Origin: an uncultured Verrucomicrobiae bacterium
Lineage (GTDB): Bacteria > Verrucomicrobiota > Verrucomicrobiia > Limisphaerales > JAFGQR01
Assembly: GCA_963788655.1 (NCBI GenBank)
Contig: CAWBHS010000060.1
Coordinates: 342,907 to 406,906 of the forward strand
Length of the DNA: 64,000 nucleotides
Reading direction: 5' to 3'
This document shows positions 32,405 to 50,845 of this stretch, one piece after another; positions within the stretch are counted from its first letter, which is position 1; the number at the start of each line of letters is the position of its first letter. The position numbers were made by a program, and so were the translations under genes. Under the pieces are notes generated by a model. That model was not told the DNA's origin, did not search any database, and saw nothing but the letters and a program-made list of their open reading frames with translations.

Positions 32405-32409
32405 GGGGA

Positions 32410-32829
32410 TCACAAGCCCTTGAGCAGGCGCCGCAGTTCCCGGGCATGACCGGCTTCGTCGGCGGCCATTTCTTCGAGTTTCATTTTGAGTTCGGGCAGC
32501 TTCAACGTCTCGGCAAGTTGCGCGTGGGCCAGGTAATGTTCAACGTCCTGCTCCTCCATTGCCATGTTCAAGGCCAACATGCCTTCGAGGTCGTCGGGCT
32601 TGTCGAATGGTTTGGGCGTGGTGGTCGGTTCGCCGCCCAGATCAAGAATCACATCGGTGAGGAAGGCAGCGTGCCCCAATTCGTCCTGGGCGTCTTTGCG
32701 CAATAGTCCGCGCACCTCCACGCCGAGCGGCCCGTAGCACTTGCCCGCCTGGTAGGTGTACCGGATGACGGTACCCAATTCGGCGCTGAGATCGTCATTG
32801 AGTCCTTTAATCAAGTCGTTGGTGTTCAT
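32410..32829 (-). CDS. Ferritin-like (bacterioferritin-type) protein
   Basis: Di-iron ExxH motifs DELGHA and DEAGHA, plus LGGEPT. Confidence 0.85.
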   Translation of the reverse strand: MNTNDLIKGLNDDLSAELGTVIRYTYQAGKCYGPLGVEVRGLLRKDAQDELGHAAFLTDVILDLGGEPTTTPKPFDKPDDLEGMLALNMAMEEQDVEHYLAHAQLAETLKLPELKMKLEEMAADEAGHARELRRLLKGL

Positions 32830-32906
32830 GTGAGTTGTCAGTTTTGGTTTCTGTCCTTGCGAGCGGGAGCGGATTCCGCCCACCGGCGCAACTGCCTCCA
32901 ATATCC

Positions 32907-32922
32907 CGCAAGTGGCATGCCA
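32907..32922 (-). promoter_or_regulatory. Sigma54 -24/-12 promoter for the ferritin/NifX genes
   Basis: TGGCATGCCACTTGCG on the minus strand matches TGGCAC-N5-TTGC. Confidence 0.75.
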
Positions 32923-33088
32923 GATCTGCCATTGAGCTTTATCGGTTGAAACGCCAGCCAATGCGCACCGGTGGGCAGACCTTTGGAAGGCGAATGGTCA
33001 TTGGCTTATGGCAAAATGAAACGGCGCGCGAGCCTGACTATCGCGAAATGGAAGAGCAAACCGCCGAATCCCCATCGAACTCAACGTT

Positions 33089-33742
33089 TCAACGCTGGCG
33101 GCGGGCGACGATCAATTCCTGATGGCAGCCGACCCGGTGCCGCAGCTCGAATCCCGAGGCTCGCAAACGAACGCGCCAATGCGCGAAAAGGCTGGGTGGG
33201 TAGGGATGGCGTTTGCCTTCGTTGCGATGGATGGCGTCCATTAACCGGAAGCCACTGGGGGCAAAGTCCGCCAGCACCAGCTTGCCACCGGGCTTCAAGA
33301 CGCGCAGCATTTCAGCGAACACTCGTTCCGGATTATCCAGATGGTGAAACACATTCCATGAAGTCACCGCGTCAAAATGCGCCGCGGGCCAAGGCAGGAA
33401 TCGCGCGTCCTGAATTCGAAATTCAAGGCGGTCCGCCACCCCGGCATAATCCGCTTCCAACCGGGCACAGCGTTGCTCCGCCGGATTGACATCGATCGTG
33501 GTCACCCGGGAAACATGCCGGGCCAGCGGTATCACAAAACGTCCTTTGCCGGTGCCCACGTCGAGCACGTGTCCCGGCAATGGCAGCGCATTTGCCAACA
33601 CAAAATTCACCCCGGCCTCCGGATCGTATCCGAAACGTCGGTGCTGCGCGTTACGGTCGGTCAATTGCCGATGGTTCTCCAGCATTTCGGCTTGGCTGGA
33701 TTGCGAGATCAATTTTGGTTTCGGATTCGTCTTCATTTTCAT
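33089..33742 (-). CDS. Class I SAM-dependent methyltransferase
   Basis: Motifs VLDVGTGKG, FDAV..NVFHH and RVLKPGG. Confidence 0.88.
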   Translation of the reverse strand: MKMKTNPKPKLISQSSQAEMLENHRQLTDRNAQHRRFGYDPEAGVNFVLANALPLPGHVLDVGTGKGRFVIPLARHVSRVTTIDVNPAEQRCARLEADYAGVADRLEFRIQDARFLPWPAAHFDAVTSWNVFHHLDNPERVFAEMLRVLKPGGKLVLADFAPSGFRLMDAIHRNEGKRHPYPPSLFAHWRVRLRASGFELRHRVGCHQELIVARRQR

Positions 33743-33870
33743 CAGGTTCAATAAATACGATGGCCAATCGCGTTGGCTTGAGTCTCTCACTTTCGGGACG
33801 CGGCTGTAGTGACGAATGGAGGTGCTGCGGCTGGCCGGCGATTCAACCGCGCTCCGGCGAGAAACGAGCG

Positions 33871-34093
33871 TTAGAGTTCGGACGGGGCGCGCGGCGCGGA
33901 GAACGGTTCGTTGTGATTTGCGTCCATACACTCGCGCATACGCACGGCAGAATGGGCAAGCGTTGCTCTCGACACGATTCACCAGCCAATAGGCGAGTCC
34001 CGCTTGCCGTTTTCGAGCGTGCCGGCAAACGGGACAATTCCGACAAACACTGGCCAGGGCCAGGTCCGATTTGGAAGGAGGATTGGTTTTCAC
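33871..34093 (-). CDS. Small Cys-rich protein (separate gene; the ORF track fuses it to the MTase through a +1 indel)
   Basis: CRNCPVCRHARK..CPFCRAYARVYGRKS. Removing one A gives HEPFSAPRAPSEL followed by a stop at 33871. Confidence 0.65.
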
Positions 34094-34105
34094 CGTTCGT
34101 GACTT

Positions 34106-35407
34106 TCAAGGGAGCGTTTTCAATTTGCGGAACAACGTACTGGCGCTGATGCCCAATTCACGAGCGGCCCGCGTGCGATTGCCATCGTGACGGCGCAAGG
34201 CGTCGGTAAGCAACAGCTTTTCCATCGCCTGTAAGGTCATGCCCGGCCGCCAGGCCAACCGTGCGGAACCCGGCCCACACAACAAATGCGGCGGCAGGTG
34301 CGAGCGTTCGATCAAGCCGCCCCGGCACAAAACAAAAGCGTGTTCGATGATGTTTTCCAATTCGCGCACGTTGCCGGGATAGTCATGATTCATCAGGCAG
34401 GCCAGCACTTCGTCGGACACGCCGGCAATGTCTTTGCCCTTGAGCCGATTGAACCGCGCGATAAAAAAATCGAGCAACAACGGAATGTCCTCGCGCCGGT
34501 CGCACAACGCGGGCAATTCCAACCGCACGACATGAATCCGGTAAAACAAATCCTCGCGAAACGCGCCCTTCTCGACTTGCTGGCGCAAAGGCTTGTTGGT
34601 CGCCGCGAGGAGACGCACGTCCGTTTTCACCGGTTCAACACTGCCGAGCGGTTCATACACCCGCTCTTGGAGCACGCGCAACAACCGCGACTGCATGGCG
34701 GGCGAAATGTCCGCAATCTCATCTAAAAACAGTGTTCCTCGATGCGCGAGGGCAAAGCGTCCGGGCTTGTCCCGCCGGGCATCCGTAAAGGCGCCGGCTT
34801 TGTAACCAAACAGCTCGGATTCCAACAGCGTGTCGGGTAGCGCCCCGCAGTTCACCGCCACAAACCGTCTTTCCCGCCGGTGCGACAGCGTATGAATGGC
34901 GCGGGCGAACAATTCCTTGCCCGTGCCGCTGGCGCCTTCGATGAGCACCGTCCTGTCACTTTCGGCAATGGGCGGCAGGAGATCAAAGATTGCCCGCATG
35001 CCCGCACTGCGCCCGATGATGTCGGCAAAGGAATCCTGTTGCTGCACCGCTCGCTGTAATTCGTCCACCAACCGCAAATCGCGAAAGCTTTCCACGCCGC
35101 CCAACACCCGTCCGCGCGGACCTTTCAGAACTGCGGTGGAGATGCTGATAGGTATCTTCTGGCCCCGCGCATTAACGATGTACACCACTTGGTTCATGAC
35201 GGGCCGGCCAGTCGCGAGCGTTTGCTTCAACGCGCAGGCATGCTCACAGATGCTGGCGCGAAACACCTCACAACATCGGTGGCCGATCGCTTCCCCGCGC
35301 TGAATGCCGGTGATTTGTTCGGCCGCGCGATTGAAAGCGGTAATGCGCCAGTCGGAGTCCACCGTAAAGACTCCGTCCGGCACATAATCCAGCAGGTTAT
35401 CGAACAT
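34106..35407 (-). CDS. PAS-domain sigma54 enhancer-binding protein (OrpR-like)
   Basis: PAS domain with CCEVFRASICEHAC, then GASGTGKE, GAFTDA, LFLDEI, PGNVRELEN and a Fis HTH. Confidence 0.92.
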   Translation of the reverse strand: MFDNLLDYVPDGVFTVDSDWRITAFNRAAEQITGIQRGEAIGHRCCEVFRASICEHACALKQTLATGRPVMNQVVYIVNARGQKIPISISTAVLKGPRGRVLGGVESFRDLRLVDELQRAVQQQDSFADIIGRSAGMRAIFDLLPPIAESDRTVLIEGASGTGKELFARAIHTLSHRRERRFVAVNCGALPDTLLESELFGYKAGAFTDARRDKPGRFALAHRGTLFLDEIADISPAMQSRLLRVLQERVYEPLGSVEPVKTDVRLLAATNKPLRQQVEKGAFREDLFYRIHVVRLELPALCDRREDIPLLLDFFIARFNRLKGKDIAGVSDEVLACLMNHDYPGNVRELENIIEHAFVLCRGGLIERSHLPPHLLCGPGSARLAWRPGMTLQAMEKLLLTDALRRHDGNRTRAARELGISASTLFRKLKTLP

Positions 35408-35652
35408 AGCTGGCAACCTAGCAAAATCCGATTCGGCGAACCAGCGAGATTCCGGTGCGATTGCCCAGACTCCCGATTCGGTAGCGCAAATTGAAACGGT
35501 TCGCCCGGCCAGCTATCGCAAGATGCCATGGTGAACTGGTTCCGGCATCGTTTCCCAAAAGAGGGCGACAGAGAATTCAGAAACCAATTACCGAGCGCAC
35601 GCCAACACTTCTGCGGCGTGCGACGAGGCTTGAGCCGCAGGCGTTCCGTCAC

Positions 35653-35668
35653 TGGCGTGCGTCTTGCT
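35653..35668 (+). promoter_or_regulatory. Sigma54 -24/-12 promoter
   Basis: TGGCGTGCGTCTTGCT, ~110 bp upstream of the NifX-like gene. Confidence 0.7.
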
Positions 35669-35777
35669 CAAGACCAAGCGTGGTCCATGAAATTAAGCTG
35701 CAACGACTCAAAGCGTGACAGCGTGGAAAGACGTTTTCACTGCGCGCACGTTGGCGGGCAGGGATCAGATTAACACG

Positions 35778-36188
35778 ATGAGAATTTGCATACCAACCAT
35801 TGAAGACAACGGGCTGAACAGCCTTCCCTACGACCATTTTGGTTCGGCCCGATGTTTTATCCTGCACGACACCGAAACCGACAAGACGCAAGTCCTACAA
35901 AACCAAAACGAACATCACGAACACGGCGCATGTCATCCGTTGTCAGCTTTGGAAGGACAACAGGTGGACGCCATTTTGGTGGGGGGAATTGGCGCGCGAG
36001 CTCTTGCCAAGCTGCGCGCCGCGGGCATACGAATCTTCCAGGCCACCGCGGGAACCGTGCGGGAAAATGTCGAAGCCTTCCAACGAGGCCAATTGAATGA
36101 GTTCACCCCTGAAACCGCTTGTCGCGGACATGCGCACGGGCATGGGCATGGGCACGGACATGAGCACGGGCACGAGCAGGGATTTTGA
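35778..36188 (+). CDS. NifB/NifX family protein with His-rich tail
   Basis: Motifs HFGSARCF and GGIGARA; C-terminal HAHGHGHGHGHEHGH. Confidence 0.88.
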   Translation: MRICIPTIEDNGLNSLPYDHFGSARCFILHDTETDKTQVLQNQNEHHEHGACHPLSALEGQQVDAILVGGIGARALAKLRAAGIRIFQATAGTVRENVEAFQRGQLNEFTPETACRGHAHGHGHGHGHEHGHEQGF

Positions 36189-38209: not shown

Positions 38210-40543
38210 TCAACTGAACGGAAGGACGAAGTAGAATTCGCTTCCCTTGCCGGGGTCGCTCTTGAGGTTCATCACGCCTCGGTGCGCGCGAACGAATTCC
38301 CGCGCAATGGATAATCCCAGCCCGGCGCCGCGTTGGGGACTGTCGGGCACGCGAAAGAATTTATCAAAGATCCGCGAGTGATATTCCTGGGGCACGCCCG
38401 GACCCTGATCCACCACGCTGATCCGAATATTGTGCTCATCTTCCAAGCCGGTCCGCACTTTGACCTCCGCTCCCGGCGGAGAATATTTGATCGCATTGGT
38501 CAAGAGATTGGTCAGCACGTGAATCATCCGCTCGCGGTCCACTTTGAGCGGCGGCAACTCTGATTGCATATCCGTGTGAATCTTCACCCCGGCGACTTCG
38601 GCCTGGGCCTGAACTTCTGCCAACGCTGCATGCACCAATTGTTCAACGGGCGTTATTTCCGGAGCGATGCCGACCGCGTCATTCTCAAAACGCGTCAGGT
38701 CGAGCAAGGTATTCAAGGTGCGCAATAATCGCTCCGTTTCATCGCGGGCAATCATCATCATCTCCAGTTGCGAGCTGTTCAGCGAGCCAATCCGTTGTTC
38801 CAGTAATAGCAACAAGGCCGTGCGCAGACTGGTAATCGGCGTTTTGAGCTCATGGCTGACCGTCGAGATCAAGTTGGTCTTCACTTCGTCCAGCAGCCGA
38901 AACTCGGTCACGTCCTGCAATGTTACGACCGCCCCAAAAACCTGTTGCTCCGGCGTACGCATAGCGACAATTCGGCTGAGGTAAAAGCGGTCTTCCTGGC
39001 CGATCTCAAATCGATGCACCGTTTTGAAACCGGTCGGCAGATGATGCTCGCCGGTCTGCAACACCTGGTTCAACTCCCGTTGAATGGGTGCCGGCAAAGT
39101 ATGCTCGAATTCCACGACTCGGGCAAACCGTCGGGCGGCTGGATTTTGGAAATCAATCTGACCGTCGATGCGCGTGACAAAGACCACGTCGGGGATGGCC
39201 TCCAGAATGGAATACAAGGTATCGTTAATCTGCACATGCCGCGCTTCGGCCCGTTTCTGATCCGCGATGTTGGTGCTGGTGCCATACCAACGGACCACGC
39301 GTCCTTGCGCATTGCGCACCGGCACGGCGCGCGATAAAAACCACTGGTAGGCGCCGGTCTTGGCTTCGCGAAACCGACGTTCCATTTGAAAGACGCGGCC
39401 GGACTTGACCGCTTTGCGCCAGCGATTCAGGCACCGGCGATAATCGTCGGGATGCACCACCGCTTTCCAGGCTTTGATGCCCACCTGTCCCGGCGGCAAA
39501 CCCGTGAATTTATACCAGCGTTCATTGAAATAATCGATCTCGCCATCGGGCAGTGCCGTCCAGGCGATCTGGGGCATGGCCTCAGCGAGCCGGCGGTAGC
39601 GGGCTTCGCTTTCCCGTAATGCCGCTTCGGCTTGCTGGCGCCCGGTAATGTCAATGATGGACGCCAGCACGTGAGGACGATTGCCAACCTGCAACGGGTT
39701 CAATCCGATTTCCAACGGCACTTCGACCCCGTCCTTGCGCCGACCAAACAGCTCGCGGCCCGCGCGCATCGGCCGCACAGACGGTTCCTTGAGAAAATCG
39801 GCGCGCAGCCCTGGATATTTGGCGCCGTAGCGCTCCGGCAGGAGCATTTCCACCGGCTGGCCCATCAATTCCTCACGACCGTAACCGAAAAGTTTTTCCA
39901 CCTCCTCATTGACCAAGGTGATCTTTCCGGCATCGTCCACCATCAGCAGGGCGCTGGGCGCCGCGTCCACCACCAGGCGGAACCGCGCTTCACTTTCGCG
40001 TAGTTGCTTCTCCGCGCGGCATCGCACGATAAATTGCCCGATTTGATGACCGATCGTTTCTCCCACGCGCATCAGTTCCGGTTCCGGCTCGCGGATTTCC
40101 CGGCTGAAGAACTCCATCACGCCCAAAACCTGCTCGGCCAATCGAATGGGGAAAGCGACGGCAGCGTGCAATCCAGCCTGGGCCGCTTCCGAACTCCGGA
40201 CAAAGCCGCGATCCAGTGTCACATCCGCAATCCACTCGGGGTGTCCCCTGGCCCAAACGCGTCCGGGCAGGCCGATGCCGGGTTGGAAACGTCGTTCCTG
40301 CGTTGCGATTTCGAATGCCGGCAGCCGGAACTCGGGCGATTGCCAGCTCACCAGCGAATACAACTCGCCGCGTTCCGCATCCACTGCCCAAAGACCTCCG
40401 ATTAGCCAGCCGGTGTGGCGGCAGATGGCTTCCAGGATTTGGGGCGCGGCCTCTCGCAAGGTGGCTGACTCCGCCAACAACCGGCTGACCGCGTAGTGCG
40501 CCTCCCGACGCCGGGACGAATGGGTTGAATGGGACGTATCCAT
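38210..40543 (-). CDS. Cytoplasmic GAF-PAS-PAS-PAS histidine kinase
   Basis: GAF (GLPGRVW), PAS/PAC repeats, H-box SHELKTP, N-box NLLTNAIKY and GAGLGL. No TM segment is seen. Confidence 0.93.
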   Translation of the reverse strand: MDTSHSTHSSRRREAHYAVSRLLAESATLREAAPQILEAICRHTGWLIGGLWAVDAERGELYSLVSWQSPEFRLPAFEIATQERRFQPGIGLPGRVWARGHPEWIADVTLDRGFVRSSEAAQAGLHAAVAFPIRLAEQVLGVMEFFSREIREPEPELMRVGETIGHQIGQFIVRCRAEKQLRESEARFRLVVDAAPSALLMVDDAGKITLVNEEVEKLFGYGREELMGQPVEMLLPERYGAKYPGLRADFLKEPSVRPMRAGRELFGRRKDGVEVPLEIGLNPLQVGNRPHVLASIIDITGRQQAEAALRESEARYRRLAEAMPQIAWTALPDGEIDYFNERWYKFTGLPPGQVGIKAWKAVVHPDDYRRCLNRWRKAVKSGRVFQMERRFREAKTGAYQWFLSRAVPVRNAQGRVVRWYGTSTNIADQKRAEARHVQINDTLYSILEAIPDVVFVTRIDGQIDFQNPAARRFARVVEFEHTLPAPIQRELNQVLQTGEHHLPTGFKTVHRFEIGQEDRFYLSRIVAMRTPEQQVFGAVVTLQDVTEFRLLDEVKTNLISTVSHELKTPITSLRTALLLLLEQRIGSLNSSQLEMMMIARDETERLLRTLNTLLDLTRFENDAVGIAPEITPVEQLVHAALAEVQAQAEVAGVKIHTDMQSELPPLKVDRERMIHVLTNLLTNAIKYSPPGAEVKVRTGLEDEHNIRISVVDQGPGVPQEYHSRIFDKFFRVPDSPQRGAGLGLSIAREFVRAHRGVMNLKSDPGKGSEFYFVLPFS

Positions 40544-40626
40544 AAAATCGTCGGGTTACATACAGGTCTGCCCTCCCATTGCATCTCGCATACCGAGCGG
40601 GAAACGGAGCGATGGCCGGGAGCGGA

Positions 40627-41970
40627 CTACAATCCAAGCTTCTTGCGCTTGCGGTATAGTGTCGCCGGGTCGATGCCCAGCGTCTTGGCCGCGTCCTCCA
40701 TCGAGGTGGATCGCGTCAAGACGCGCCGGATATGTTCGACCTCCAATTCCTCGAGGCTCACTTCGGCCCCGACCTGGATTCCCGGGGTGGCTTCAGCCCC
40801 ATCCCGCTGGCACAGCTTGTCCGGCAGGTCGCAAGTTTCGATGCTTTCGCCGCCCGCCAAAATCACGGCCCGTTCCACCACATTGCGCAATTCGCGCAAG
40901 TTGCCGGGCCAGCCATAACGTCGCATTGCCTGCTCCGCCGCCGGCGCAAATCCGCGCAGCGGCTTGCCGGATTGGCTGGTGAAAAACTGGAGATACGCGG
41001 ACGCGATGGCCATCAAGTCCGCCATCCGTTCCCGCAAGGGGGGCAAGGAGACGGCAATGACGTTCAAGCGGTAAAATAGATCCTCGCGGAACCGGCCCTC
41101 GGCGACGGATTGTTCCAGATCGCGATTGGTCGCGGTGAGTACTCGCACGTTGGCGCGGCGCACTTTGTTTTCACCCAAGCGCTCGTACTCTTTTTCTTGC
41201 AACAATCGCAAGAGCTTGGGCTGGATCTCCAGCGGCATCTCGCCAATTTCATCGAGGAACAGCGTGCCGCCGTCGGCGATGGCTACTTTGCCCCAGGTAT
41301 CGCCCACCGCGCCGGTGAACGATCCTTTGACATGGCCGAACAGTTCGCTTTCCAGCAGTTCGCGCGACAAGCTGGGACAACTGACCGTGACGAATGGTTG
41401 GGCTTTCTGCGCGCTACGCTCGTGGATGAAACGAGCGAGGACCGTCTTGCCCGTGCCGCTTTCACCGAGGAGGAGTATGGTGGCGGCCGAGGCCGCCGCC
41501 TTGAGGGCGGTATCGTAAACGCCTTGCAGCGCGGGTTCGGCGGTGGTGAGATTCAATGGCGGCGCGTCGGAAGAAATGCGCGATTCCAAATCCGCCACGC
41601 GGTCCTGCAACTTGCGGGTTTTGGCAATTTTTCCCAATACCAGTCGGATCTGGTCCGGAGTGAAGGGTTTGGTGACATAATCGATCGCCCCGCATTGCAT
41701 CGCTTTGACGGCGGATTCGATGGAGGCATACGCCGTAAAGACAACAATCTCCAATCGCGGATCGCGGTGCAACAACTTGGGCAACAATTCCAGTCCGCTT
41801 TGGTCCTCAAGCCGGAGATCCAGAAACACCACCTCGAACTCCTGCTCGTGAAGCTGTTTCAAGGCCGCCGCGCCATTTTCCACCCCCAACGTTTCGTGCC
41901 CCATTTCCGTCAACACGGCAGCCGTTGTGGTCCGGATGTTCTTCTCGTCGTCAACAATCAGAATTCGCAT
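40627..41970 (-). CDS. Sigma54-dependent response regulator (NtrC/AlgB-like)
   Basis: Receiver domain, GESGTGKT, GSFTGA, LFLDEI, WPGNLRELRN and HTH LGIDPATLYRK. Confidence 0.95.
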   Translation of the reverse strand: MRILIVDDEKNIRTTTAAVLTEMGHETLGVENGAAALKQLHEQEFEVVFLDLRLEDQSGLELLPKLLHRDPRLEIVVFTAYASIESAVKAMQCGAIDYVTKPFTPDQIRLVLGKIAKTRKLQDRVADLESRISSDAPPLNLTTAEPALQGVYDTALKAAASAATILLLGESGTGKTVLARFIHERSAQKAQPFVTVSCPSLSRELLESELFGHVKGSFTGAVGDTWGKVAIADGGTLFLDEIGEMPLEIQPKLLRLLQEKEYERLGENKVRRANVRVLTATNRDLEQSVAEGRFREDLFYRLNVIAVSLPPLRERMADLMAIASAYLQFFTSQSGKPLRGFAPAAEQAMRRYGWPGNLRELRNVVERAVILAGGESIETCDLPDKLCQRDGAEATPGIQVGAEVSLEELEVEHIRRVLTRSTSMEDAAKTLGIDPATLYRKRKKLGL

Positions 41971-42112
41971 AAATGCTTTCCGCGATCGCGGTAAAGCCTA
42001 CGTGGGAAATGCGGCTGCGACCAGTTAAATTATGAGGCAGATTAGTGCGACGCGTTGACTCAAATTAAAAGACACCGAGGAAGGCATTCGCCGGGAAAAC
42101 AGCGATGTCCTC

Positions 42113-42155
42113 CTGCATTCTGCAAGGTTCTCCCGGCTGAGGTTGCATCGTGCAA
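42113..42155. promoter_or_regulatory. Paired TTGCA-N3-TGCAA enhancer sites
   Basis: ctgcattctgcaa (42113) and ttgcatcgtgcaa (42143), 30 bp apart. Confidence 0.7.
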
Positions 42156-42336
42156 GGCTTCCGGCCTGATCCGTTAGTTTTGCCAGGCAAACCGCGCCCC
42201 GCAGCTCAAAGGAATGGCGCTGGAGCTTGGCGGCACCACAAACACTGCCGGCGCGGCGCCAAGTTCTGGCCGCCGGCATTCGAATGTCCGCATCGTTTGG
42301 CGCCGCCGGCCTTTGCCGAATTGGAGGCCCGCCGTA

Positions 42337-42352
42337 TGGCACCCTCAGTGCT
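42337..42352 (+). promoter_or_regulatory. Sigma54 -24/-12 promoter of the degenerate regulator
   Basis: TGGCACCCTCAGTGCT. Confidence 0.7.
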
Positions 42353-42445
42353 TGAGGGGAAGTGTTGCCACGGCTCCAGCGAGGCAAACGTTTGAGTAGA
42401 TCACTGATTCATTACCGCCGAAAATTCAGAGTTAAACGCGCTCCC

Positions 42446-43558
42446 ATGCAGATCCTGATCATCGATGACGAAGCCAATATCCGGCGCACCACGGCGGTGG
42501 CGTTGGAAGGCATGGGGCACGAGGCCGTGGGCGCTCAGAATAGCAGCGAAGCCCTGCAGCAACTCGACAAATCCAATTTCGACGTGGCGTTTCTGGATCT
42601 CAAACTGGGTGAAGAGCAGGGATTGAATTTGCTGCCGCAATTGCTCGAACACGATCCGGCCTTGGACGTGGTGGTGTTCACGGCTTACGCGTCAATTGAC
42701 TCGGCGGTGGAAGCGATGCGGCGAGGCGCGTTTGACTACATCCCCAAACCGTTCACGCCGGACCAGATTCAAAACGTTCTGGAGCGCGTCGCGCACAGTC
42801 TGGCGGCGGCGCCAGAGCCGGTTTGGGAGAACAGCTATGAACTGGCCAGCCGGGCCGCCGCCGGCGCGCAGCCGGTATTGCTGCTGGGCGAACGGGGCAC
42901 GGGCAAAACCGCAATGGCGCGTTTCATCCATCAGAACAGTTCGCGCGCCGCCAAGCCGCTGGTGCGCGTTTGCTGTCCGCGGCTGCGCCCCGATCGGGTG
43001 GAGAGCGCCCTGTTCGGCGATCCGGCCGAACCAGGCGACGCCCCAGGCACTGTGGCTCCTGGCAAGCTGTTCCGGGCGGAAGGCGGCACGCTGTTTCTAC
43101 AGGAAATCAGCCTCGTGCCTTTGGCAGCGCAAGCAAAGCTGCTCCGGGTTTTGAACGAGGGACAATATCAACGGCGGGGAGAAAACATACCCCGGCAGGC
43201 CAACGTACGCCTGATCGGCGCGTCGCACCATAACTTGGAGAATGCCGTGAACGCGGGCCGTTTCCACCCCGAGCTATTCGCTTGCCTGGAAAAACGAATC
43301 ATTCATTTACCCCCGCTGCGTGAGCGCCGCGAGGAACTGCTGAAGACGGCGCACAGTTCACTCGAGTTATTTGCGGCCCAACTGGGGAAGCCGGTCAAGG
43401 GATTCTCCGCGGAGGTGGAGCAGGCACTGCGGCGTTACCGTTGGCCGGGTAATTTGCGGGAGCTGCAAAACGTTATCAAAGGCGCCGTGCAAGTGGCCGA
43501 GGGCTCCCAGATCGAGTCGGCGCATCTGCCGGACAAATTGCGGAGGCCGCCTCGCTGA
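42446..43558 (+). CDS. Degenerate sigma54 response-regulator paralog
   Basis: The receiver closely resembles that of 40627..41970. The AAA+ domain lacks GAFTGA, Walker B reads LFLQEI, and there is no HTH. Confidence 0.88.
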   Translation: MQILIIDDEANIRRTTAVALEGMGHEAVGAQNSSEALQQLDKSNFDVAFLDLKLGEEQGLNLLPQLLEHDPALDVVVFTAYASIDSAVEAMRRGAFDYIPKPFTPDQIQNVLERVAHSLAAAPEPVWENSYELASRAAAGAQPVLLLGERGTGKTAMARFIHQNSSRAAKPLVRVCCPRLRPDRVESALFGDPAEPGDAPGTVAPGKLFRAEGGTLFLQEISLVPLAAQAKLLRVLNEGQYQRRGENIPRQANVRLIGASHHNLENAVNAGRFHPELFACLEKRIIHLPPLRERREELLKTAHSSLELFAAQLGKPVKGFSAEVEQALRRYRWPGNLRELQNVIKGAVQVAEGSQIESAHLPDKLRRPPR

Positions 43559-43672
43559 TCGCTGACCTTTCGCGCGGCACCGAGCTGCGGTGAGGTCCGT
43601 GTTTCGCATGGTGGCAACTTGGTCCGAAAGCGGCGCTCAAGCGCACGCAGGCCAGACGCCCTGCGCAATCCG

Positions 43673-44143
43673 TCAGTTCCCATCCAACTGGGCGTCGCCT
43701 TGCGGTTTGCGCTCGATTTGCAGGGTGGAGATGACTTGCTTGACTCCCTCAACCGATCGCGCAATGGATACCGCACGTTCCTTTTCCGCGCCGGATTGGA
43801 CTTTGCCGGATAAGGTGACCAAGCCATCCGTGGTGTCCACATCAATCCTCAAGGCCGACAACGTGTCGGCCGCAGCCAGTTTAGCTTTGATCCGGGTGCT
43901 GATCAACGCGTCTGAAGAAACCTCCTTAACTGCCCGGCCGGCGTCCCGCAACTCCTGCTTGAGGCCTTCGGTGTCGATGGAGTCAGCGGCGTCTGCTATT
44001 TTGTCCTTCGCCTCGCGCGCGCCGTCTTCGATCTTATTGCCGGCGGATTCGAGACGCTGCTTGGTTTCGGTCGGATGCGAAAGCGCCCAAACGGCGAGGA
44101 CCGCTACGAGGATGCCCACTAAAAAGCTAATCACGATTTTCAT
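43673..44143 (-). CDS. BON domain (OsmY-like) protein
   Basis: DALISTRIKAKL..IDVDTTDGLVTLSG..ARSVEGVKQV. Confidence 0.9.
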   Translation of the reverse strand: MKIVISFLVGILVAVLAVWALSHPTETKQRLESAGNKIEDGAREAKDKIADAADSIDTEGLKQELRDAGRAVKEVSSDALISTRIKAKLAAADTLSALRIDVDTTDGLVTLSGKVQSGAEKERAVSIARSVEGVKQVISTLQIERKPQGDAQLDGN

Positions 44144-44227
44144 AAAAGGGGTTTGGTTGAGATTGTAGATTTAAGGCCGCCGATTGTTGCCAATCGGCGA
44201 CCCTCGGGGGAAAACAACCGGCAACTG

Positions 44228-45346
44228 CTACCGGTTTTGCGGTTCCTGTTTTTTATCGAGCTCTTTCTGGAAGGTCGAACCTTGCTCATCCCGGTTGCGA
44301 ACCGGTTGCCGCGCGTCCGAACTCCAGAAGACGGTTTCATTGAAGCGACGATAAACGTTGGCAACCCACACCGGATCGCTCAGCTCAGCCCACTCCTCGT
44401 CTTTGATGGTGGTGGTTTGATCCAACTTGTTCTTCGACAGTCGCAGCGTCGCCTGATCCAGGTTCTTCCCGTAGTCGATTTGCCGTGGCGGAATGGCGTG
44501 CAACGTTTCACCGACTCCCAGAACGCCGCCCGAAGAAACGACGGCAAACAAGATATGTCCGGAGTTGAGGTCAATCAGGAAGTTTTCAATTTCGCCGACC
44601 TTGGCGTTTTGATTGTCGCGGACGGTCTTGTCCAGCAGTTGACTCGCTTTGGCCAATCGCAGGCCGGGCTGCGTCATGGTTTCCTGGGAGCCGGAATCCT
44701 TCGCCCGCTCGGCAGCGGGTGGCGGCGCCGACTCAGTGTCCGGATTCCGCGCTTTTTGGCCGACGGTGTCTTCACTGTGCCAATATGCCGATTGCCCAAA
44801 ATGACGGTAGGCCACCAGCATTTGAGTGCTTTCGTCCTTTAGGTTCCAATCAAACACCGGCACTTTCTCGAATTGCTTCACGCTCATGTCGAGTCCCAAT
44901 TGACGCTCGGGGTTTTCGGCATTCTCTCCCGACTTCACGAAGCGGGCGTAGGTGAGGCTCTGCGGCGGGATGGCGCGCAATCGTTCGCCCACGCCCAACA
45001 GTCCACCCCGGGTGGCCACGATGGCGACGACCCGTCCATTGCGGGCGTCAACGGCCAAATCACTCACCGTGGCCAGTTCCGCACCGTCTTTGCCTTTGAT
45101 TTCCCGCCCAATCAAGTCGCTGGCCTTGGCGGCCAGGAATGATTTTCCCATTACGGCGATGGACGTGCGGCGCACTCCTTTCAATGGTTCTTGATTCTGC
45201 TGCTCCTTCGTTTGCGGCGCGTTTTGATTGGGCGCTTCGTTGTTCCTGGTTTCGGGAGCTGGTTTCTCCCCGCTCACCGCATTGCCTGCCGTCAGCACGA
45301 AGATGCCTCCCAGCGCCACTGCGATTAATTTCGTTTTCTTTGTCAT
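44228..45346 (-). CDS. Exported tandem PRC-barrel protein
   Basis: Signal peptide and two KAS.L....V/I repeats, each followed by GG.LGVGE...AIP. Confidence 0.88.
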   Translation of the reverse strand: MTKKTKLIAVALGGIFVLTAGNAVSGEKPAPETRNNEAPNQNAPQTKEQQNQEPLKGVRRTSIAVMGKSFLAAKASDLIGREIKGKDGAELATVSDLAVDARNGRVVAIVATRGGLLGVGERLRAIPPQSLTYARFVKSGENAENPERQLGLDMSVKQFEKVPVFDWNLKDESTQMLVAYRHFGQSAYWHSEDTVGQKARNPDTESAPPPAAERAKDSGSQETMTQPGLRLAKASQLLDKTVRDNQNAKVGEIENFLIDLNSGHILFAVVSSGGVLGVGETLHAIPPRQIDYGKNLDQATLRLSKNKLDQTTTIKDEEWAELSDPVWVANVYRRFNETVFWSSDARQPVRNRDEQGSTFQKELDKKQEPQNR

Positions 45347-45467
45347 AGCCGAATCCTTTCTGTCGTTTGATTGTTGGTGTCTCAGTTTGGGTTTATTCAT
45401 TTGCATGGGCATTCTGTTCATTACAAAGGCCTCCGCCAATACGCGCATCGGCCTTGGCAGAAAGATA

Positions 45468-45606
45468 AGCTACAGGAATGCCAACGACCAGTCGGAGTCC
45501 TTAAACCGCAGTGTCTCAAGCACTTCAACAACCAGGTGGAAAAACGCGGGCCCCGTCCGGCGATTGCAGTTTGCAATGGCGATCAAGCACGTGTCGCAGG
45601 ATGCAA
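45468..45606 (-). promoter_or_regulatory. Sigma54 promoter plus enhancer pair for the PRC-barrel/BON genes
   Basis: TGGCATTCCTGTAGCT (45483-45468, minus strand); ttgcagtttgcaa (45564) and tcgcaggatgcaa (45594). Confidence 0.65.
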
Positions 45607-45744
45607 TCCGGGAGTACGCCAGCGAAAATAATGCAGTGTATCCTGAAGTCGGTTAACGGCATCCGGCATCGCCTGGTGATGCGGCGGGCGGTTCTGGTCG
45701 CCCATGCTTCAGCATACTGGGGGGAAGTGGAACCGGCCGAACGG

Positions 45745-46632
45745 CTATTCCGGTACCACAAACGTGAATTTCCGTTCCTTGCCGTCGCGGCGAACGACAA
45801 TCGTGACGCTATGCCCGATCGATGCCTCCAGCAGTTTCCGCAAAGCGATGAAATCCGGTGGTAAAGGGGCTGCGGCTGGCAACTCAGATTCCAGAACCAA
45901 TTCACGGCCGGCCAGCGTCTCCGAAGCGACCGCGTCCATGTCACTAGGCAGCGCATTGGCCCAAGGCACGACTGGTCGGGACGGATCTAACTCCGAAAGG
46001 AGATGAACTGGCACGGCGAAATTCAGATTTTGCGCCCCCCGTTTGCTCCAAGAGGCCACGCCGACAACGGCGCCTGCGGCGTTGAGCAACGGTCCGCCGC
46101 TGTTGCCGGTCGAGAATGGGCAGCTCACTTGATACTGCGGATAGCCGTCCAGGTTTTGGATTTGGCTTAACAAACCTTCGGCAATGCTGAAACCATAACC
46201 CTTCGGCGCTCCCATAATGTAAAGTCGGGATCCAATGCGCGGTGTTGCCGTCGCCAACTTCAGCAGCGGCTGGTCCTCGTTCTTCAACTGGATCAAGGCC
46301 AGGTCGTGTTGCTCGTTTTTATCGACCCATCCCAGAACCGGTTGCTTGCGCCCATCCGCAAAGATCGCCATGACATTCGTCGCATCGTAGATGACATGCC
46401 AGGCAGTCACGGCGATGTCTTGGGCCACCGCCAGGAACGCCGATCCGGTAAACCGTTCGCCCGCCGCATTCTGAACCTTCAGGGTCAGAACCGATGGCTG
46501 AATCAGGGTGTAAATATCCTCCGGCGGCAGGGGCTCCGCTCGCAACGGCGTTATAAACAAACTCGCCAATCCAAACCCGAAAAGAGCGAGAACTTTGAAT
46601 TTCAAATGGTTACACATCGAAGACTCAAACAT
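45745..46632 (-). CDS. Trypsin-like (S1C) serine protease
   Basis: Catalytic triad motifs TAWHV, DLALI and GNSGGPL; signal peptide. Confidence 0.9.
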   Translation of the reverse strand: MFESSMCNHLKFKVLALFGFGLASLFITPLRAEPLPPEDIYTLIQPSVLTLKVQNAAGERFTGSAFLAVAQDIAVTAWHVIYDATNVMAIFADGRKQPVLGWVDKNEQHDLALIQLKNEDQPLLKLATATPRIGSRLYIMGAPKGYGFSIAEGLLSQIQNLDGYPQYQVSCPFSTGNSGGPLLNAAGAVVGVASWSKRGAQNLNFAVPVHLLSELDPSRPVVPWANALPSDMDAVASETLAGRELVLESELPAAAPLPPDFIALRKLLEASIGHSVTIVVRRDGKERKFTFVVPE

Positions 46633-46745
46633 ACTGATCTCAATCTAAGCATAATGCTGGCCTGAATATAGGCGAAATCCCTACCTGTCTCAATCGCAAA
46701 TCCGAAACCCAACTGCTAAGAGCCTGTTTTAAACTCCAGCCGATC

Positions 46746-46833
46746 CGTAACAGCCGACGTAAGGAGGCTCATTTTTCCTCGGAAAACTGCGGTGCGTCCG
46801 AGATGAATGAGCCTCCTTACGTCGGACTGCTAC
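46746..46833. repeat. REP inverted repeat (same family as 26958)
   Basis: gtaacagccgacgtaaggaggctcatt...aatgagcctccttacgtcggactgctac. Confidence 0.8.
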
Positions 46834-47034
46834 GATGGAGGTTCACGACAACGGCATGGGTTTGTCCCGGCCACTCCCCGCTGGAAGAGGCATCGGCGTC
46901 GAAACCATGGCCAGTCGGGCGCGCGTCATTGGCGCCCAACTCCACTTGGATTCGCAACCGAACTGCGGCACCCACGTGACATGCAAGCTTCCCCTTTTCC
47001 AGAGGTCGTAGCGTCAACGCATCTGAGTCGGCAC

Positions 47035-47172
47035 ATGCAAAGTGCAATTATTCAGGGGGTTATCATGCACAATGCCAAGCGGATTTCCTGCGCGGCCGGC
47101 CCCAAACAATGCACAACTCATTTCGATTGAGCAAGTTCCGGGAAACTGCCGGAAACTGGCATAGTTCTGGCA
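47035..47172 (+). promoter_or_regulatory. Enhancer pair plus sigma54 promoter
   Basis: atgcaaagtgcaa (47035), atgcacaatgcca (47065) and TGGCATAGTTCTGGCA (47157). Confidence 0.65.
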
Positions 47173-47335
47173 AGTATAGTTGGTAGCTTATGCAAACAGT
47201 GTTCAACCACAGTTGGAAGTATCACAGCGCACTGGCCGGTCGCCAGCGCCTTCCTCGTTCCCGACATCGGGATCCAGAACCTTTGATCGACTCCTCTTTC
47301 CAGCTAAGCGAAACCAACACCAGAAAGGAATTTAA

Positions 47336-47878
47336 ATGGCTACGTTAACCGTATTCGGAATCGCCCGTTCCAAGCCACACGCCGACGCCATCATCCTGCA
47401 ACTGATGCGCGCGGATTTTGGTCCGTACGCACTCTCGGCGCTGCAAGCGGCGGAGAACCTCCCTGAGGACAGGCGTAGGCAGGAACCCGCACCCCGGACA
47501 TCCGCCGACATTCCAGGCAATGGCAAACCACCGGTGGAAGGCGCCTTGGGCTTGTTGCCCGGACTGCGAATCTTGACTGGTACCGATGGGATACCACTCG
47601 TGGCCAGCGGTACGTTTGCCGACAATCTTGAAGGCCTTGCGAGCAGGGGCCTGGTTGAGGGACTGCTACGCCTGGGGATGACCGATTACGAAGCCAGACG
47701 ATTTGAACACCAGGTCAAGGAGGGGGACATCCTCATCTGCGCGCGCGCCGAAACGGCGGAGGATACCGTGCGGGCGACAGAGATCTTCGAGCAGGCGGGG
47801 GTATGGGATGTCATCATTGACGACGACACCCCGATTATGCCCTTCGTGCGCGAGGAGCCGCAGACAACGGTCACTTGA
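47336..47878 (+). CDS. General stress protein 17M/YflT-like
   Basis: GL..LGMTDYEARRFEHQVKEGDILI..RATEIFEQAG; preceded by an AAGGA RBS. Confidence 0.65.
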   Translation: MATLTVFGIARSKPHADAIILQLMRADFGPYALSALQAAENLPEDRRRQEPAPRTSADIPGNGKPPVEGALGLLPGLRILTGTDGIPLVASGTFADNLEGLASRGLVEGLLRLGMTDYEARRFEHQVKEGDILICARAETAEDTVRATEIFEQAGVWDVIIDDDTPIMPFVREEPQTTVT

Positions 47879-48033
47879 GGCTGGATGATTCCCCCATGCA
47901 GGCGACTCCGGCGTTCCCTTAAGCACCAGGCATTTTCCTGAGTGCCGGACTGGAGCCCGCCCCATTCATGAATTCCGTTTCCAGACGATACTGTCAGCAA
48001 ATTAATAAACAACCAACACACGAAAGGAAATAT

Positions 48034-48198
48034 ATGTTAAGCTGGGCTGTCACCTTTTTAGTCATTGCCCTCATCGCCGGTGTCCTGGGTTTTGGAGACA
48101 TCGCTGGCGCCGCGGTGGGTATCGCCAAGATTCTGTTTGTGGTCTTCCTGGTTCTGTTTGTGATCTTCTTGATTATGGGACGGCGCCCCCCCGCCTAA
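48034..48198 (+). CDS. DUF1328 (UPF0391/YtjA) small membrane protein
   Basis: [35 protein letters not shown]. Confidence 0.92.
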
Positions 48199-48269
48199 TT
48201 CAGCGGAGGCATTACTATGTTAGCGACTGAATCGCGGCAATAAAACCCAAATACGAAAGGTAATAAATT

Positions 48270-48521
48270 ATGAAACTCATACCCCACCTCAACACGGCAA
48301 CTCGAATTGGGTCGTTCAAAATTGTTTTGCTCGCGCTCATGAGCGGAATGCTCCTCACCGGTTGCCATACGAAAGAAGGAATCGAACAAGACGCGGAATC
48401 AGCCGGCGAAGCCGTCAAAGACGCGGCCGATGACGCGGGGGACGCCGTGAAAGACGCGGTCGATGACGCCGGCGACACCGTGAAAGACGCGGCCGATGAT
48501 GTGGATGACAGCATCAAGTAG
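48270..48521 (+). CDS. Entericidin-like lipoprotein with 11-residue repeats
   Basis: Lipobox LTGC, then HTKEGIEQDAESAGEAV and repeated VKDAADDAGD. Confidence 0.7.
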   Translation: MKLIPHLNTATRIGSFKIVLLALMSGMLLTGCHTKEGIEQDAESAGEAVKDAADDAGDAVKDAVDDAGDTVKDAADDVDDSIK

Positions 48522-48666
48522 GATGGAGGACTGTGCAGTGCAAAACGGCGATTGGCTCGTCGTTGCTCATTCGCAAATCATCCCTGCAACGCCGGCGATT
48601 GTATTCCGGGACGGAGCGCAGTCCGTGCGGGCCGGATAATCCACAGCGCTTGCCGGTGAACTGCCC

Positions 48667-49279
48667 ATGAGTGACTCAACCATCGGGTGCCCGAGTTGTG
48701 GTTTGCTCCAGCGTCTTGAACCGCTGGCTCCGGGGATGACGGCTGATTGTTCGCGGTGCGGTTCGCAGGTCGCCAAAGCCAAACGGGACAGTCTGGGGCG
48801 CACGGCGGCGCTTTCGCTGGCGGCCCTCCTGCTCTACGTGCCGGCGAACATTTATCCGATCATGCGCATGGAGTTTCATGGGGTGTTCACCGAAAGCACC
48901 GTGTGGGATGGTTGCGTGCGCCTCTTTCAAGATGGCCAATGGCTGGTGGCCGTGATTGTGTTCCTGGCCAGCCTGCTCGTTCCACTGCTCAAGTTGCTGG
49001 GGCTTTTCTTCCTGGTCATCACCACCAAGCTGAGTTCGCCGCGCGCGCGGCCGCTCCGAACGCGCATTCATCAACTCATCGAGGTGATCGGTCCGTGGGC
49101 GATGCTCGATGTATTCCTGTTGGCGATCCTGGTTGCCCTGGTGAAGCTGGGACGCATCGCGACGGTCACGCCCGGGCCGGGTTTGCTGGCGTTTACTTCG
49201 GTCGTAGGACCTGACAATCCTGGCTTCCGCCAGCTTCGATCCCCGACAGATTTGGGAAGGAGAGAATCAAAACTCATGA
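48667..49279 (+). CDS. pqiA: PqiA family membrane protein (frameshift at ~49207 fuses it to the next gene in the ORF track)
   Basis: CPSCG..CSRCG, PANIYP and GPWAMLDVFL; the corrected end reads LTILASASFDPRQIW. Confidence 0.88.
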
Positions 49280-50235
49280 GCAAGGAAACTCCCCATTCCC
49301 GCGGCGACCTGCCCCAAGCCAAAACGAAAAAGCGCCGATGGAAACTATCGCCGGTCTGGGCTGTCCCAGCGGTGGCGGCGTTGCTGGCGGGCTACCTGGT
49401 TTACCAGCGTGTCCTCGAATACGGTTCGACCATCACCATCCAGTTTCGGGAGGCAAGCGGGGTGAATCCGGGCCAAACACCCGTCAAATATCGCGGAGTG
49501 GATATTGGGCAAGTGGGATCCATTCGGTTAAGCGAGGACCAGCAATACGCGACCTTGGAAGTTAAACTAAAGCGGCAGGCGTCCTCGGTAGCTCGGGAAG
49601 ATTCCGTCTTTTGGATTGTTCGACCGCAACTGGGCATGGGAAACTTTACCGGCCTGGGGACGATAATTACCGGTCCCTACATCGAGGTCTTGCCGGGCGA
49701 GGGAGAAGCCGCTTCCGAATTTATTGGCGCGGAGCAGTCACCCAAGATTCTTGATCCGGACGGATTGAATCTGATTCTGCTTTCACCGCACAGTGCCTCC
49801 TTACGGGCGGGTGTCCCGATCTATTATCGCGGCATTGCCGTGGGCGCCGTGCGCGAGGCTCGACTCACCACCAATGCCAACGCGGTGGCAATCCAGGGGG
49901 TCATCCGACCGCGCTACGCGCCCCTGGTCCGAACCGATTCAAAGTTCTGGAACGTTACTGGCATGGATGTGCGGGTGGGATTGTTTAGCGGGGCCGAAGT
50001 GGACGTCGAATCTCTCAAGTCACTATTCATCGGCGGCATTGCTTTTGCCACGCCGGACGATTCAAATCCCCGGCCGGTGCCAGACGGCATGGTATTCCGC
50101 TTGCACGACCAGGCCAAACCGGAGTGGCGGGAATGGTCACCTCCGATCTCCATACCGATTGAGTCCGACGGGGCCGAACAGGCTGAGATTAGAACGCCCC
50201 GTGACTTGCCTTTCCCGCAACGTAATCCGCCTTAA
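49276..50235 (+). CDS. pqiB: PqiB/MCE (MlaD) domain protein
   Basis: Motifs W.VP, TPVKYRGVDIGQV, FWIVRP, FWNVTG and GGIAFATP. Confidence 0.88.
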   Translation: MSKETPHSRGDLPQAKTKKRRWKLSPVWAVPAVAALLAGYLVYQRVLEYGSTITIQFREASGVNPGQTPVKYRGVDIGQVGSIRLSEDQQYATLEVKLKRQASSVAREDSVFWIVRPQLGMGNFTGLGTIITGPYIEVLPGEGEAASEFIGAEQSPKILDPDGLNLILLSPHSASLRAGVPIYYRGIAVGAVREARLTTNANAVAIQGVIRPRYAPLVRTDSKFWNVTGMDVRVGLFSGAEVDVESLKSLFIGGIAFATPDDSNPRPVPDGMVFRLHDQAKPEWREWSPPISIPIESDGAEQAEIRTPRDLPFPQRNPP

Positions 50236-50238
50236 GTG

Positions 50239-50495
50239 TATGAACGTGTCTTTGCTCACTCTCCTGCTTGGCATTGTTTAGCGCCGCCATCGCCCTCGCT
50301 GCATTAACCGGCTGTGCCCGCCTCCAAGAGCAACGTAGTTCACGGAGCACCGGGGAATATATCGACGATAGAACGATCACCGCGAGGGGGAAGAACGCCT
50401 TGGCCAATCGTGGGCAACCCGAATTCGGGGAGGTCATAATCTTAACCGGTCGCGGCCGCGTGCAGCTCAGTGGATCCGTTAAAAACTCAAGCTAA
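50239..50495 (+). pseudogene. Truncated BON-domain lipoprotein
   Basis: LTGC..RSTGEYIDDRTITA..GRVQLSG, followed by a premature stop. Confidence 0.65.
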
Positions 50496-50569
50496 ATGTT
50501 CCAACCAAGTGAATCGAAGCGTGATTGCGCAAAGCGACCGATAAACCAAAGGAAAGGAACCATACCGCC

Positions 50570-50845
50570 ATGCCGCTCATCTTTGCCGTGCTCGCCCTCT
50601 TCGTGCCTCGAGTTATCATGCTGCTGCTCTGGCTGCTGACGAACTGGTTTCAGGGTGTCTATGCCACCGTGCTCTGGCCGGTGTTGGGATTTGTTATTAT
50701 GCCCACCACCACCCTCTGGTATTCGGCCGTGCAAAACTGGTTTCACGGCGAATGGGGACTCATTCCCGTCATCGGATTGGTGTTCAGCGTTCTGCTCGAT
50801 GTCTCGCCGTCCGGTTATCGCCAACGTCGGGTGCAATCCGCGTGA
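50570..50845 (+). CDS. Small hypothetical membrane protein
   Basis: MPLIFAVLALFVPRV..WPVLGFVIMPTTTLWY; preceded by a GGAAAGGA RBS. Confidence 0.75.
   Translation: MPLIFAVLALFVPRVIMLLLWLLTNWFQGVYATVLWPVLGFVIMPTTTLWYSAVQNWFHGEWGLIPVIGLVFSVLLDVSPSGYRQRRVQSA

Follow-up and report, generated by a model that had tools for sequence, protein, structure and literature searches.

The present analysis concerns a 64,000-nucleotide stretch of DNA (hereafter, the window) from an uncultured Verrucomicrobiae bacterium, which lies in an 8.96-Mb assembly of 59.6% GC (G000:C60:342907-406906). It holds what is probably a verrucomicrobial algB-kinB system: judged from the sequence, an activator of the AlgB clade would act together with sigma54 to drive a general stress regulon of about 14 transcription units. 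An earlier note on this DNA had proposed a sigma54-dependent stress-gene regulon under an AlgB-like activator, and this proposal is upheld by a published binding motif, by box pairs found genome-wide, by the co-occurrence of pairs and regulator across the order and by RpoN-dependent counterparts in Pseudomonas aeruginosa. In contrast, its description of motif and regulator as "undescribed" did not survive, as the box is the published AlgB SELEX motif (PMC8041468) and the regulator belongs to the AlgB clade. The central elements are:

42113..42155, no strand: AlgB box pair 1, exact cores, 30 bp apart
45564..45606, no strand: AlgB box pair 2, one core mismatch, 30 bp apart
47035..47077, no strand: AlgB box pair 3, one core mismatch, 30 bp apart
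42336..42352, plus strand: predicted sigma54 promoter P1, 182 bp from pair 1
45468..45484, minus strand: predicted sigma54 promoter P2, 81 bp from pair 2
47156..47172, plus strand: predicted sigma54 promoter P3, 80 bp from pair 3
40627..41970, minus strand: AlgB-clade activator, receiver (REC)-AAA+(GSFTGA)-helix-turn-helix (HTH)
38210..40543, minus strand: soluble GAF-PAS-PAS-(PAS)-HisKA-HATPase kinase with a KinB-type transmitter (HELKTP)

Paired boxes and predicted sigma54 promoters

The palindrome TTGCA-N3-TGCAA had been described at six positions of the window, in pairs exactly 30 bp apart. All six coordinates were right, yet the sequence is exact only at 42143 and 45564 (two of six); the sites at 42113, 45594 and 47035 carry one mismatch each and that at 47065 carries two. 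The exact form occurs twice in the window against a shuffle mean of 0.14, and none of 100 shuffles reached two. As an element, the 13-mer was rejected, the recurring unit being the 11-bp core TGCA-N3-TGCA. The genome contains 85 exact copies of this core, eight pairs of which lie at 30-32 bp where 0.003 would be expected, and control spacers of N0-N2 and N4-N8 gave no pairs at these distances. The paired motif is thus not frequent at random positions. When strong pairs were sought at spacings of 14-70 bp, with box and promoter models trained on other genomes only, 14 of 32 lay at 30-33 bp (4 of the 57 spacings), including all three of the window. Their spacing was 30 bp in three cases (all in the window), 31 bp in four, 32 bp in six and 33 bp in one; "exactly 30 bp" hence describes the window but not the genome, and the uniform local spacing is a coincidence.

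The -24/-12 elements reported at 45483 (minus strand) and 47157 (plus strand) are present as TGGCA-N8-GC, at distances of 81 and 80 bp from the cores of their pairs, and so is TGGCAC-N5-GTGC at 42337 (plus strand), 182 bp from pair 1. All three lack the canonical TTGC at -12. Transcription from P1, P2 and P3 is predicted to begin near 42363 (plus strand), 45457 (minus strand) and 47183 (plus strand). Outside the window, a genome-wide scan for pairs with such elements, as the earlier note had suggested, showed TGGCA-N8-GC at 60-115 bp (a range chosen only after earlier scan results) for seven of nine pairs with at most one core mismatch each, compared with 1.3% of random positions. As is to be expected of a sigma54 regulon, GG and GC occur at -24/-12 spacing downstream of the enhancer sites, and rpoN is present, in a single copy.

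These counts refute chance or base composition as the source of the pairs, an explanation to which we give next to no credence. Although the palindrome as originally written is exact at two of six sites only, and the -24 and -12 elements themselves resemble half-sites, the pair counts, the clustering of spacings, the association with promoters and the order-wide co-occurrence described below all speak against an artefact.

The AlgB-like activator, its kinase and an ATPase-dead copy

The protein encoded at 40627-41970 had been taken for an AlgB-like activator, and it indeed falls together with Pseudomonas AlgB and separately from the remaining enhancer-binding proteins: in a quick tree of 63 rows, with SH-aLRT as the sole support measure, a 39-row clade joins them with a value of 98. 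It is 48-49% identical to two Pseudomonas AlgBs, has almost the same recognition helix and retains its catalytic motifs (GSFTGA, FLDEI, ATNRDL and FREDLFYRL), the GSFTGA variant being shared by 13 of 119 close homologs. The Pseudomonas algB gene is preceded by BON and DUF1328 genes and followed by a KinB_sensor kinase gene, a neighbourhood which argues that the window holds the homologous locus. The window box agrees with the TGCA-N3-TGCA of the AlgB motif, as befits a member of the AlgB family; high-throughput SELEX of P. aeruginosa AlgB returned the dimeric motif ATCGTGCANNNTGCACGAT (PMC8041468).

The adjacent kinase had been called a soluble GAF/PAS protein. This is true here, as 38210..40543 has a GAF-PAS-PAS architecture without any hydrophobic or transmembrane segment, and a membrane KinB with a periplasmic KinB sensor domain is not what partners AlgB in the window. 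Among relatives, however, the soluble form is the exception, since a membrane KinB-type kinase follows algB in 24 of the 29 top relative loci (which include the query's own locus and one whose match begins at residue 139). The transmitter of the window kinase shares 44-46% identity with the membrane kinases next to algB in relatives and 29% with Pseudomonas KinB, and the first PAS domain of the protein is FixL-like, with a Tyr aligned to the position of the heme His. The HELKTP motif serves the phosphatase activity of KinB. A phosphatase role of KinB has been reported (PMC6932827). As to the phytochrome BphP as activating kinase, no PHY match was found in the 86%-complete genome. Soluble KinB variants recur elsewhere: P0122, P0123, P0125, P0126 and P0129 are PAS-rich with KinB-type transmitters 58-63% identical, and P0122 shares one 19,124-bp contig with the AlgB P0008.

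In the scheme we propose, the kinase would sense a cytoplasmic signal, e.g. redox state, energy or crowding, and its kinase/phosphatase activity would set the phosphorylation of AlgB. Two phospho-AlgB dimers bound to a pair of TGCA-N3-TGCA boxes, spaced about three helical turns, would nucleate the AAA+ ring, which in turn would open sigma54-RNA polymerase 65-135 bp away. Shut-down of the response may involve a further gene, left unnamed in the earlier note, whose AlgB-induced product would draw phosphate away from the kinase or disable AlgB rings:

42446..43558, plus strand: ATPase-dead AlgB copy, candidate decoy, 50% identical to AlgB

Of the invariant residues, 42 of 43 survive in the receiver of this copy, compared with 49 of 84 in its AAA+ core. 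Missing from the copy are the GAFTGA loop, Walker B Asp, sensor I and both arginine fingers, as well as the HTH. Its synonymous sites are near saturation (pS 0.71-0.74), and its 370-codon frame is open with normal GC3. An origin by sequencing error was rejected, as the other frames do not encode GAFTGA and no HTH remnant follows the stop. Retention of the receiver and decay of the rest point to selection on the receiver alone and thus to a likely phosphate sink or ring poison. We consider it likely from these features that 42446-43558 is a feedback decoy induced by AlgB, which is the least certain step of the scheme. A receiver-intact, ATPase-dead copy would be an unusual limiter of a sigma54 activator. 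The paralog pairs HrpR/HrpS, FleQ/FleT, RedR1/RedR2 and VnfA1/VnfA3 are comparable in that one paralog can mix with the main activator, and vnfA3 is itself read from a VnfA1-dependent sigma54 promoter (PMC9542535). Those pairs are co-activators. In the copy here, by contrast, catalysis and the ability to touch sigma54 or DNA are gone while the receiver remains, as would suit an inhibitor or phosphate sink.

Alternatively, 42446-43558 might be a roleless duplicate in decay, with pair 1 serving to autoregulate algB. The gene is a singleton, pair 1 lies nearer to the algB start (143 bp) than to P1, and the genome holds other broken genes; yet decay of this kind sits poorly with the unequal loss from receiver and AAA+ core, with a frame that stayed open at normal GC3 despite near-saturated synonymous sites, and with P0253, a second ATPase-dead, HTH-less AlgB of similar design. 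On balance, we hold the duplicate explanation to be rather unlikely. Four more AlgB-like proteins (P0272, P0280, P0282 and P0313) are devoid of GAFTGA and the catalytic motifs but have kept their HTH and may be repressors.

Relatives and Pseudomonas counterparts

Conservation in relatives, a check named in the earlier note, was examined in 400 genomes of the order, with AlgB-like genes called at E at most 1e-115. Exact pairs occurred in 39 of 95 AlgB-positive but only 5 of 305 AlgB-negative genomes, counts that are not independent given the relatedness of the sampled genomes; a reversed-pattern control gave 2 of 95 and 11 of 305. By family, the figures were 21 of 33 with AlgB vs 2 of 53 without. 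A pair lay within 8 kb of algB in 22 of the 25 genomes whose coordinates were compared. In a set of 60 loci fetched around listed pairs, a strict -24/-12 rule held for 22 of the 63 pairs, and stress markers (DUF892, CsbD, PRC, BON, DUF883, DUF1328, Ku, Mn catalase, DUF4142 or similar) bordered 20 of the 60, a share given here without a random or base-rate control.

When species genomes were scanned for a pair combined with a promoter, at least 123 stretches were returned. Of 80 loci fetched, 66 were gammaproteobacterial, nearly all from Pseudomonas and close kin, with a spacing of 31-32 bp and a pair-to-promoter gap of 64-67 bp, and preceded BON, DUF2383, DUF1328 and DUF3509 genes. Another frequent target of AlgB pairs in Pseudomonas is a conserved membrane microprotein of 75-81 amino acids without a Pfam family (L027, L029, L035 and similar), possibly DimA-like.

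Published P. aeruginosa data could be laid over a P. aeruginosa-like genome (G406), whose gene lengths match those of PA14. It has five pairs at a spacing of 31 bp and at most two mismatches, and AlgB summits from DNA affinity purification sequencing (DAP-seq) fall inside four of them, at dimA/PA14_20480, PA14_28600, PA14_62690 and PA14_36560, holding ranks 10, 13, 16 and 50 among the listed summits (PMC8599809). The fifth pair is intragenic and has no match among the summits listed there. A weaker pair faces the DUF1328 gene PA14_72370, 10-20 bp from the rank-11 summit (PMC8599809). The four pair genes and the DUF1328 gene all belong to the RpoN primary regulon as defined by ChIP, RNA and motif (5/5, likewise lacking a base-rate control), with expression down by 2.5-6.2 (presumably log2 units) in rpoN mutants and changed by -0.6 to +1.2 in rpoS mutants (PMC4362757). 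The same five were up by 1.8-3.6 on rpoH overexpression and by 1.7-3.9 in sigX mutants (PMC4362757 Table S2), a hint as to the signal. Far-red induction of dimA requires algB and bphP, not algU (bioRxiv 10.1101/2025.04.28.651061), and dimA in G406 (L229 1080-1542) has an exact AlgB pair with a -24/-12 element 64 bp away. The available main text of that preprint is without RpoN, whereas PMC4362757 lists dimA as an RpoN target.

The verrucomicrobial system thus shares with P. aeruginosa KinB-AlgB(-BphP) the activator clade, the box and the algB-kinase gene order (PMC6932827; PMC8041468; PMC8599809), the DUF1328 and BON genes adjoining algB, and the pair-plus-promoter layout, which in Pseudomonas precedes dimA, DUF3509, BON-CsbD and DUF1328 genes. 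On the other hand, it belongs to another phylum, its kinase is a soluble GAF/PAS protein without KinB sensor or transmembrane segments, no phytochrome was found, three intact paralogs accompany a dead copy, and the regulon is larger and includes cytoplasmic protectants. The pair-to-promoter gap, fixed at 64-67 bp in Pseudomonas, varies here from 66 to 182 bp.

Regulator, box and RpoN dependence of the Pseudomonas targets are each already on record. In the literature available to us, P. aeruginosa AlgB figures as a regulator of alginate, virulence and light responses, not as a sigma54 general-stress activator: a 2023 review lists it among RpoN activators without such targets in the part available (PMC10418997), a comparative sigma54 study names it, as far as available, for alginate only (PMC3162934), and in P. 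syringae BphP1 is tied to water-stress genes with AlgB unnamed in the portion available (PMC10515139). Our literature search found no statement of a paired-box AlgB-sigma54 stress regulon, verrucomicrobial or otherwise, and a query joining AlgB, CsbD and RpoN found nothing, though Leech 2008, Damron 2012 and Chand 2012 may anticipate part.

Regulon content and competing explanations

The genes adjoining pairs outside the window encode DUF892 (twice), PRC, PRC-BON, BON with a second pqiA/B, and a GH15 trehalase; a short-chain dehydrogenase/reductase with topoisomerase IB, a P450, an AI-2E transporter, and a thiamine pyrophosphate (TPP) enzyme with PfpI; and DUF748/DUF6655, a beta-barrel protein and a lipoprotein. 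Besides, csbD is preceded by a pair spaced 20 bp, accompanied by a -24/-12 element. The dehydrogenase and topoisomerase IB form one open reading frame (G000:C57, L001 4143-6263), which may be a frameshift artefact like that of pqiA-pqiB below. Many of these families are general-stress markers, and such genes are typical targets in the lists known for RpoS, SigB and EcfG-PhyR-NepR. The regulon is accordingly one of general-stress marker genes, as measured by a list of known markers and without a random-gene comparison. Within the window, the neighbouring genes are:

43673..44143, minus strand: BON/OsmY-like protein, second gene of the P2 unit
44228..45346, minus strand: secreted double PRC-barrel protein, likely start 45346, Shine-Dalgarno sequence AGAAAGGA
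45745..46632, minus strand: trypsin-like protease, with a sigma70-like promoter at 46693
47336..47878, plus strand: 180-amino-acid protein, weak YflT/GSP17M lead
48034..48198, plus strand: small membrane protein of the DUF1328 family, to which the gene divergent from Pseudomonas algB also belongs
48270..48521, plus strand: small lipoprotein, LLTGC lipobox, sub-cut-off entericidin/YtxH matches
48667..50235, plus strand: pqiA-pqiB, apparent fusion via frameshift
50268..50495, plus strand: BON lipoprotein fragment, broken
50570..50845, plus strand: 91-amino-acid hydrophobic protein without a Pfam family

The PRC, BON, DUF1328, PqiA and MlaD names given earlier were borne out, but "17M-like" and "entericidin-like" are weak leads only: the former protein has zero Pfam matches and falls into a YflT cluster (Atlas score 0.88, 30% share), and the matches of the latter score 19 and 17.5 bits against cut-offs of 86 and 94. 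A frameshift near 49205 makes pqiA-pqiB look fused, and the second BON gene of the window is the broken fragment. The trypsin-like protease is probably outside the regulon; a trypsin-pair-PRC module (window 45745-46632; L003 4955-7506; L192 2366-4757) occurs twice in G000, in the window and on C72, and once in G085. Scans for sigma70 promoters and terminators gave counts not above those of shuffles.

A second sigma54 activator is encoded close to the kinase:

34106..35416, minus strand: OrpR/DVU2106-like activator, GAFTDA, HTH LGISASTLFRK, N-terminal PAS suggested by the sequence
35485..35527, no strand: degenerate CGCA-type box pair, 2+2 mismatches, 32 bp spacing
35652..35668, plus strand: -24/-12 element CTGGCGTGCGTCTTGCT before the NifB/NifX-family gene 35715-36188

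NifB/X-family genes flank this activator on both sides in the region 32018-36188, which also holds a ferritin-like gene and a methyltransferase gene. The degenerate pair is likely the protein's own enhancer. We take DVU2106 of Desulfovibrio to be OrpR; the gene at 34106-35416 looks like its ortholog. DVU2106 has the same GAFTDA and a related palindrome, GGGCGCATTTTGCGCCC, two sites of which, spaced 31 bp, precede a sigma54 promoter, but it is a one-component activator of NifB/X-family operons (PMC4641369). Another Desulfovibrio protein, the Kdp regulator DVU3334, is likewise a REC-AAA-HTH sigma54 activator with a split kinase, though its box is GTTACATTTTGTAAC, its sites are 21 bp apart and its target is the kdp operon (PMC3333781; PMC4641369). 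No kdp genes were found among the scanned window proteins.

It is therefore conceivable that the OrpR-like protein, or the AlgB paralogs on C39 (L295 2045-4521) and C81 (L294 3024-7361), alone or with 40627-41970, bind the stress pairs and that the regulon integrates several inputs. Activators 58-67% identical to the OrpR-like one adjoin the non-Pseudomonas exact pairs found before NifB/X operons, its HTH helix resembles that of AlgB, and the DVU2106 sites have a comparable palindrome and spacing (PMC4641369). The two orphan paralogs, in turn, combine altered receivers with an intact ATPase and the AlgB helix; both lie in stress islands, where csbD and ku-ligD follow immediately downstream. 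Across the order, however, an OrpR-like protein was present in none of the 39 AlgB-positive relatives with the motif but in four of the five AlgB-negative ones (leaving G143 unexplained), and G000 is alone among the 45 motif-positive genomes in carrying both activators. Co-occurrence thus separates the two and assigns the stress pairs to AlgB; it does not make DVU2106/OrpR the owner of the three stress promoters. Moreover, the OrpR-like gene comes with a pair and a promoter of its own, and a canonical receiver together with a partner kinase is found for 40627-41970 only. We regard binding by these other proteins as quite improbable, while cross-talk between AlgB and the OrpR-like protein in this genome is possible.

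A different alternative leaves AlgB in place but narrows its role to an envelope or osmotic response as in Pseudomonas, with some other regulator, e.g. an extracytoplasmic function (ECF) sigma factor, in charge of the wider one. The window and Pseudomonas targets are mostly envelope proteins (periplasmic BON/PRC, lipoproteins, PqiAB, DUF1328), several cytoplasmic stress genes are without pairs, and ECF sigma factors lie outside the inventory made. Still, pairs border genes for cytoplasmic DUF892, Mn catalase, Ku, trehalase, the PfpI unit, a pyridoxamine-oxidase-like protein, CsbD and DUF883, and the kinase here has no membrane segment, so that we rate the narrower role as unlikely, if somewhat less so than the other binders.

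Several observations nevertheless weigh against an AlgB-sigma54 general stress regulon. The exact pair is absent in 56 of 95 AlgB-positive relatives, the same-genus genome G001 has neither regulator nor pair, and the order-wide counts carry the relatedness of their genomes. Besides AlgB, the genome encodes three other candidate binders, i.e. the two paralogs and the OrpR-like protein 2.8 kb from the kinase. The gap between pair 1 and P1 exceeds that of any other strong pair's candidate promoter, and the distance range of the promoter scan was set late; controls are missing for the marker share and the RpoN membership, as noted. For the dead copy no close homolog or ortholog was found, the best match reaching 53%. 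The assembly is 86% complete with 5.6% contamination and contains frameshifts. Finally, among the markers found by BLAST, DUF892 (C81, C79), both DUF3185, DUF883, BON (C74, C42), Ku and Mn catalase genes lack any pair up to 700 bp away, although two such pairless genes have a single exact box beside them; the pair regulon is hence not the whole stress response.

With these points taken into account, it is likely AlgB with sigma54, rather than a dedicated stress sigma factor, that switches on a general stress response in this genome as well as in many relatives. No RpoS, SigB or NepR was found above cut-off in the 86%-complete genome, PhyR and ECF subgroups not having been searched separately. 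The content overlaps with the RpoS, SigB and EcfG responses in OsmY/BON, CsbD, DUF892/YciF, DUF883/ElaB, Ku-LigD, PfpI, trehalase and DUF1328, but the predicted control differs, as a two-component enhancer-binding protein and sigma54 stand in for a dedicated stress sigma factor. The system is a variant of AlgB-KinB that would work like a general stress response, outside the RpoS, SigB and EcfG kinds.

Taken together, the window provides a concrete candidate for a general-stress regulator in a large, mostly uncultured group of Verrucomicrobiota for which RpoS, SigB and NepR were not found here, along with a DNA signature by which the regulon can be read from genomes alone. It also recasts Pseudomonas AlgB: joining three published datasets yields dimA, two DUF3509 genes, BON-CsbD and DUF1328 as direct AlgB-sigma54 targets, which gives the GAFTGA motif of AlgB a job and suggests that light sensing is linked to water-stress protection via AlgB targets. 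More tentatively, and with the odds somewhat against it, AlgB-sigma54 might be a fourth general-stress switch beside RpoS, SigB and EcfG, predominant in many Verrucomicrobiota and retained in Pseudomonas as a small module independent of RpoS. In the present organism it would have been reconnected to a cytoplasmic sensor, would be turned off by a decoy and would have its enhancer code in common with an OrpR-type activator.

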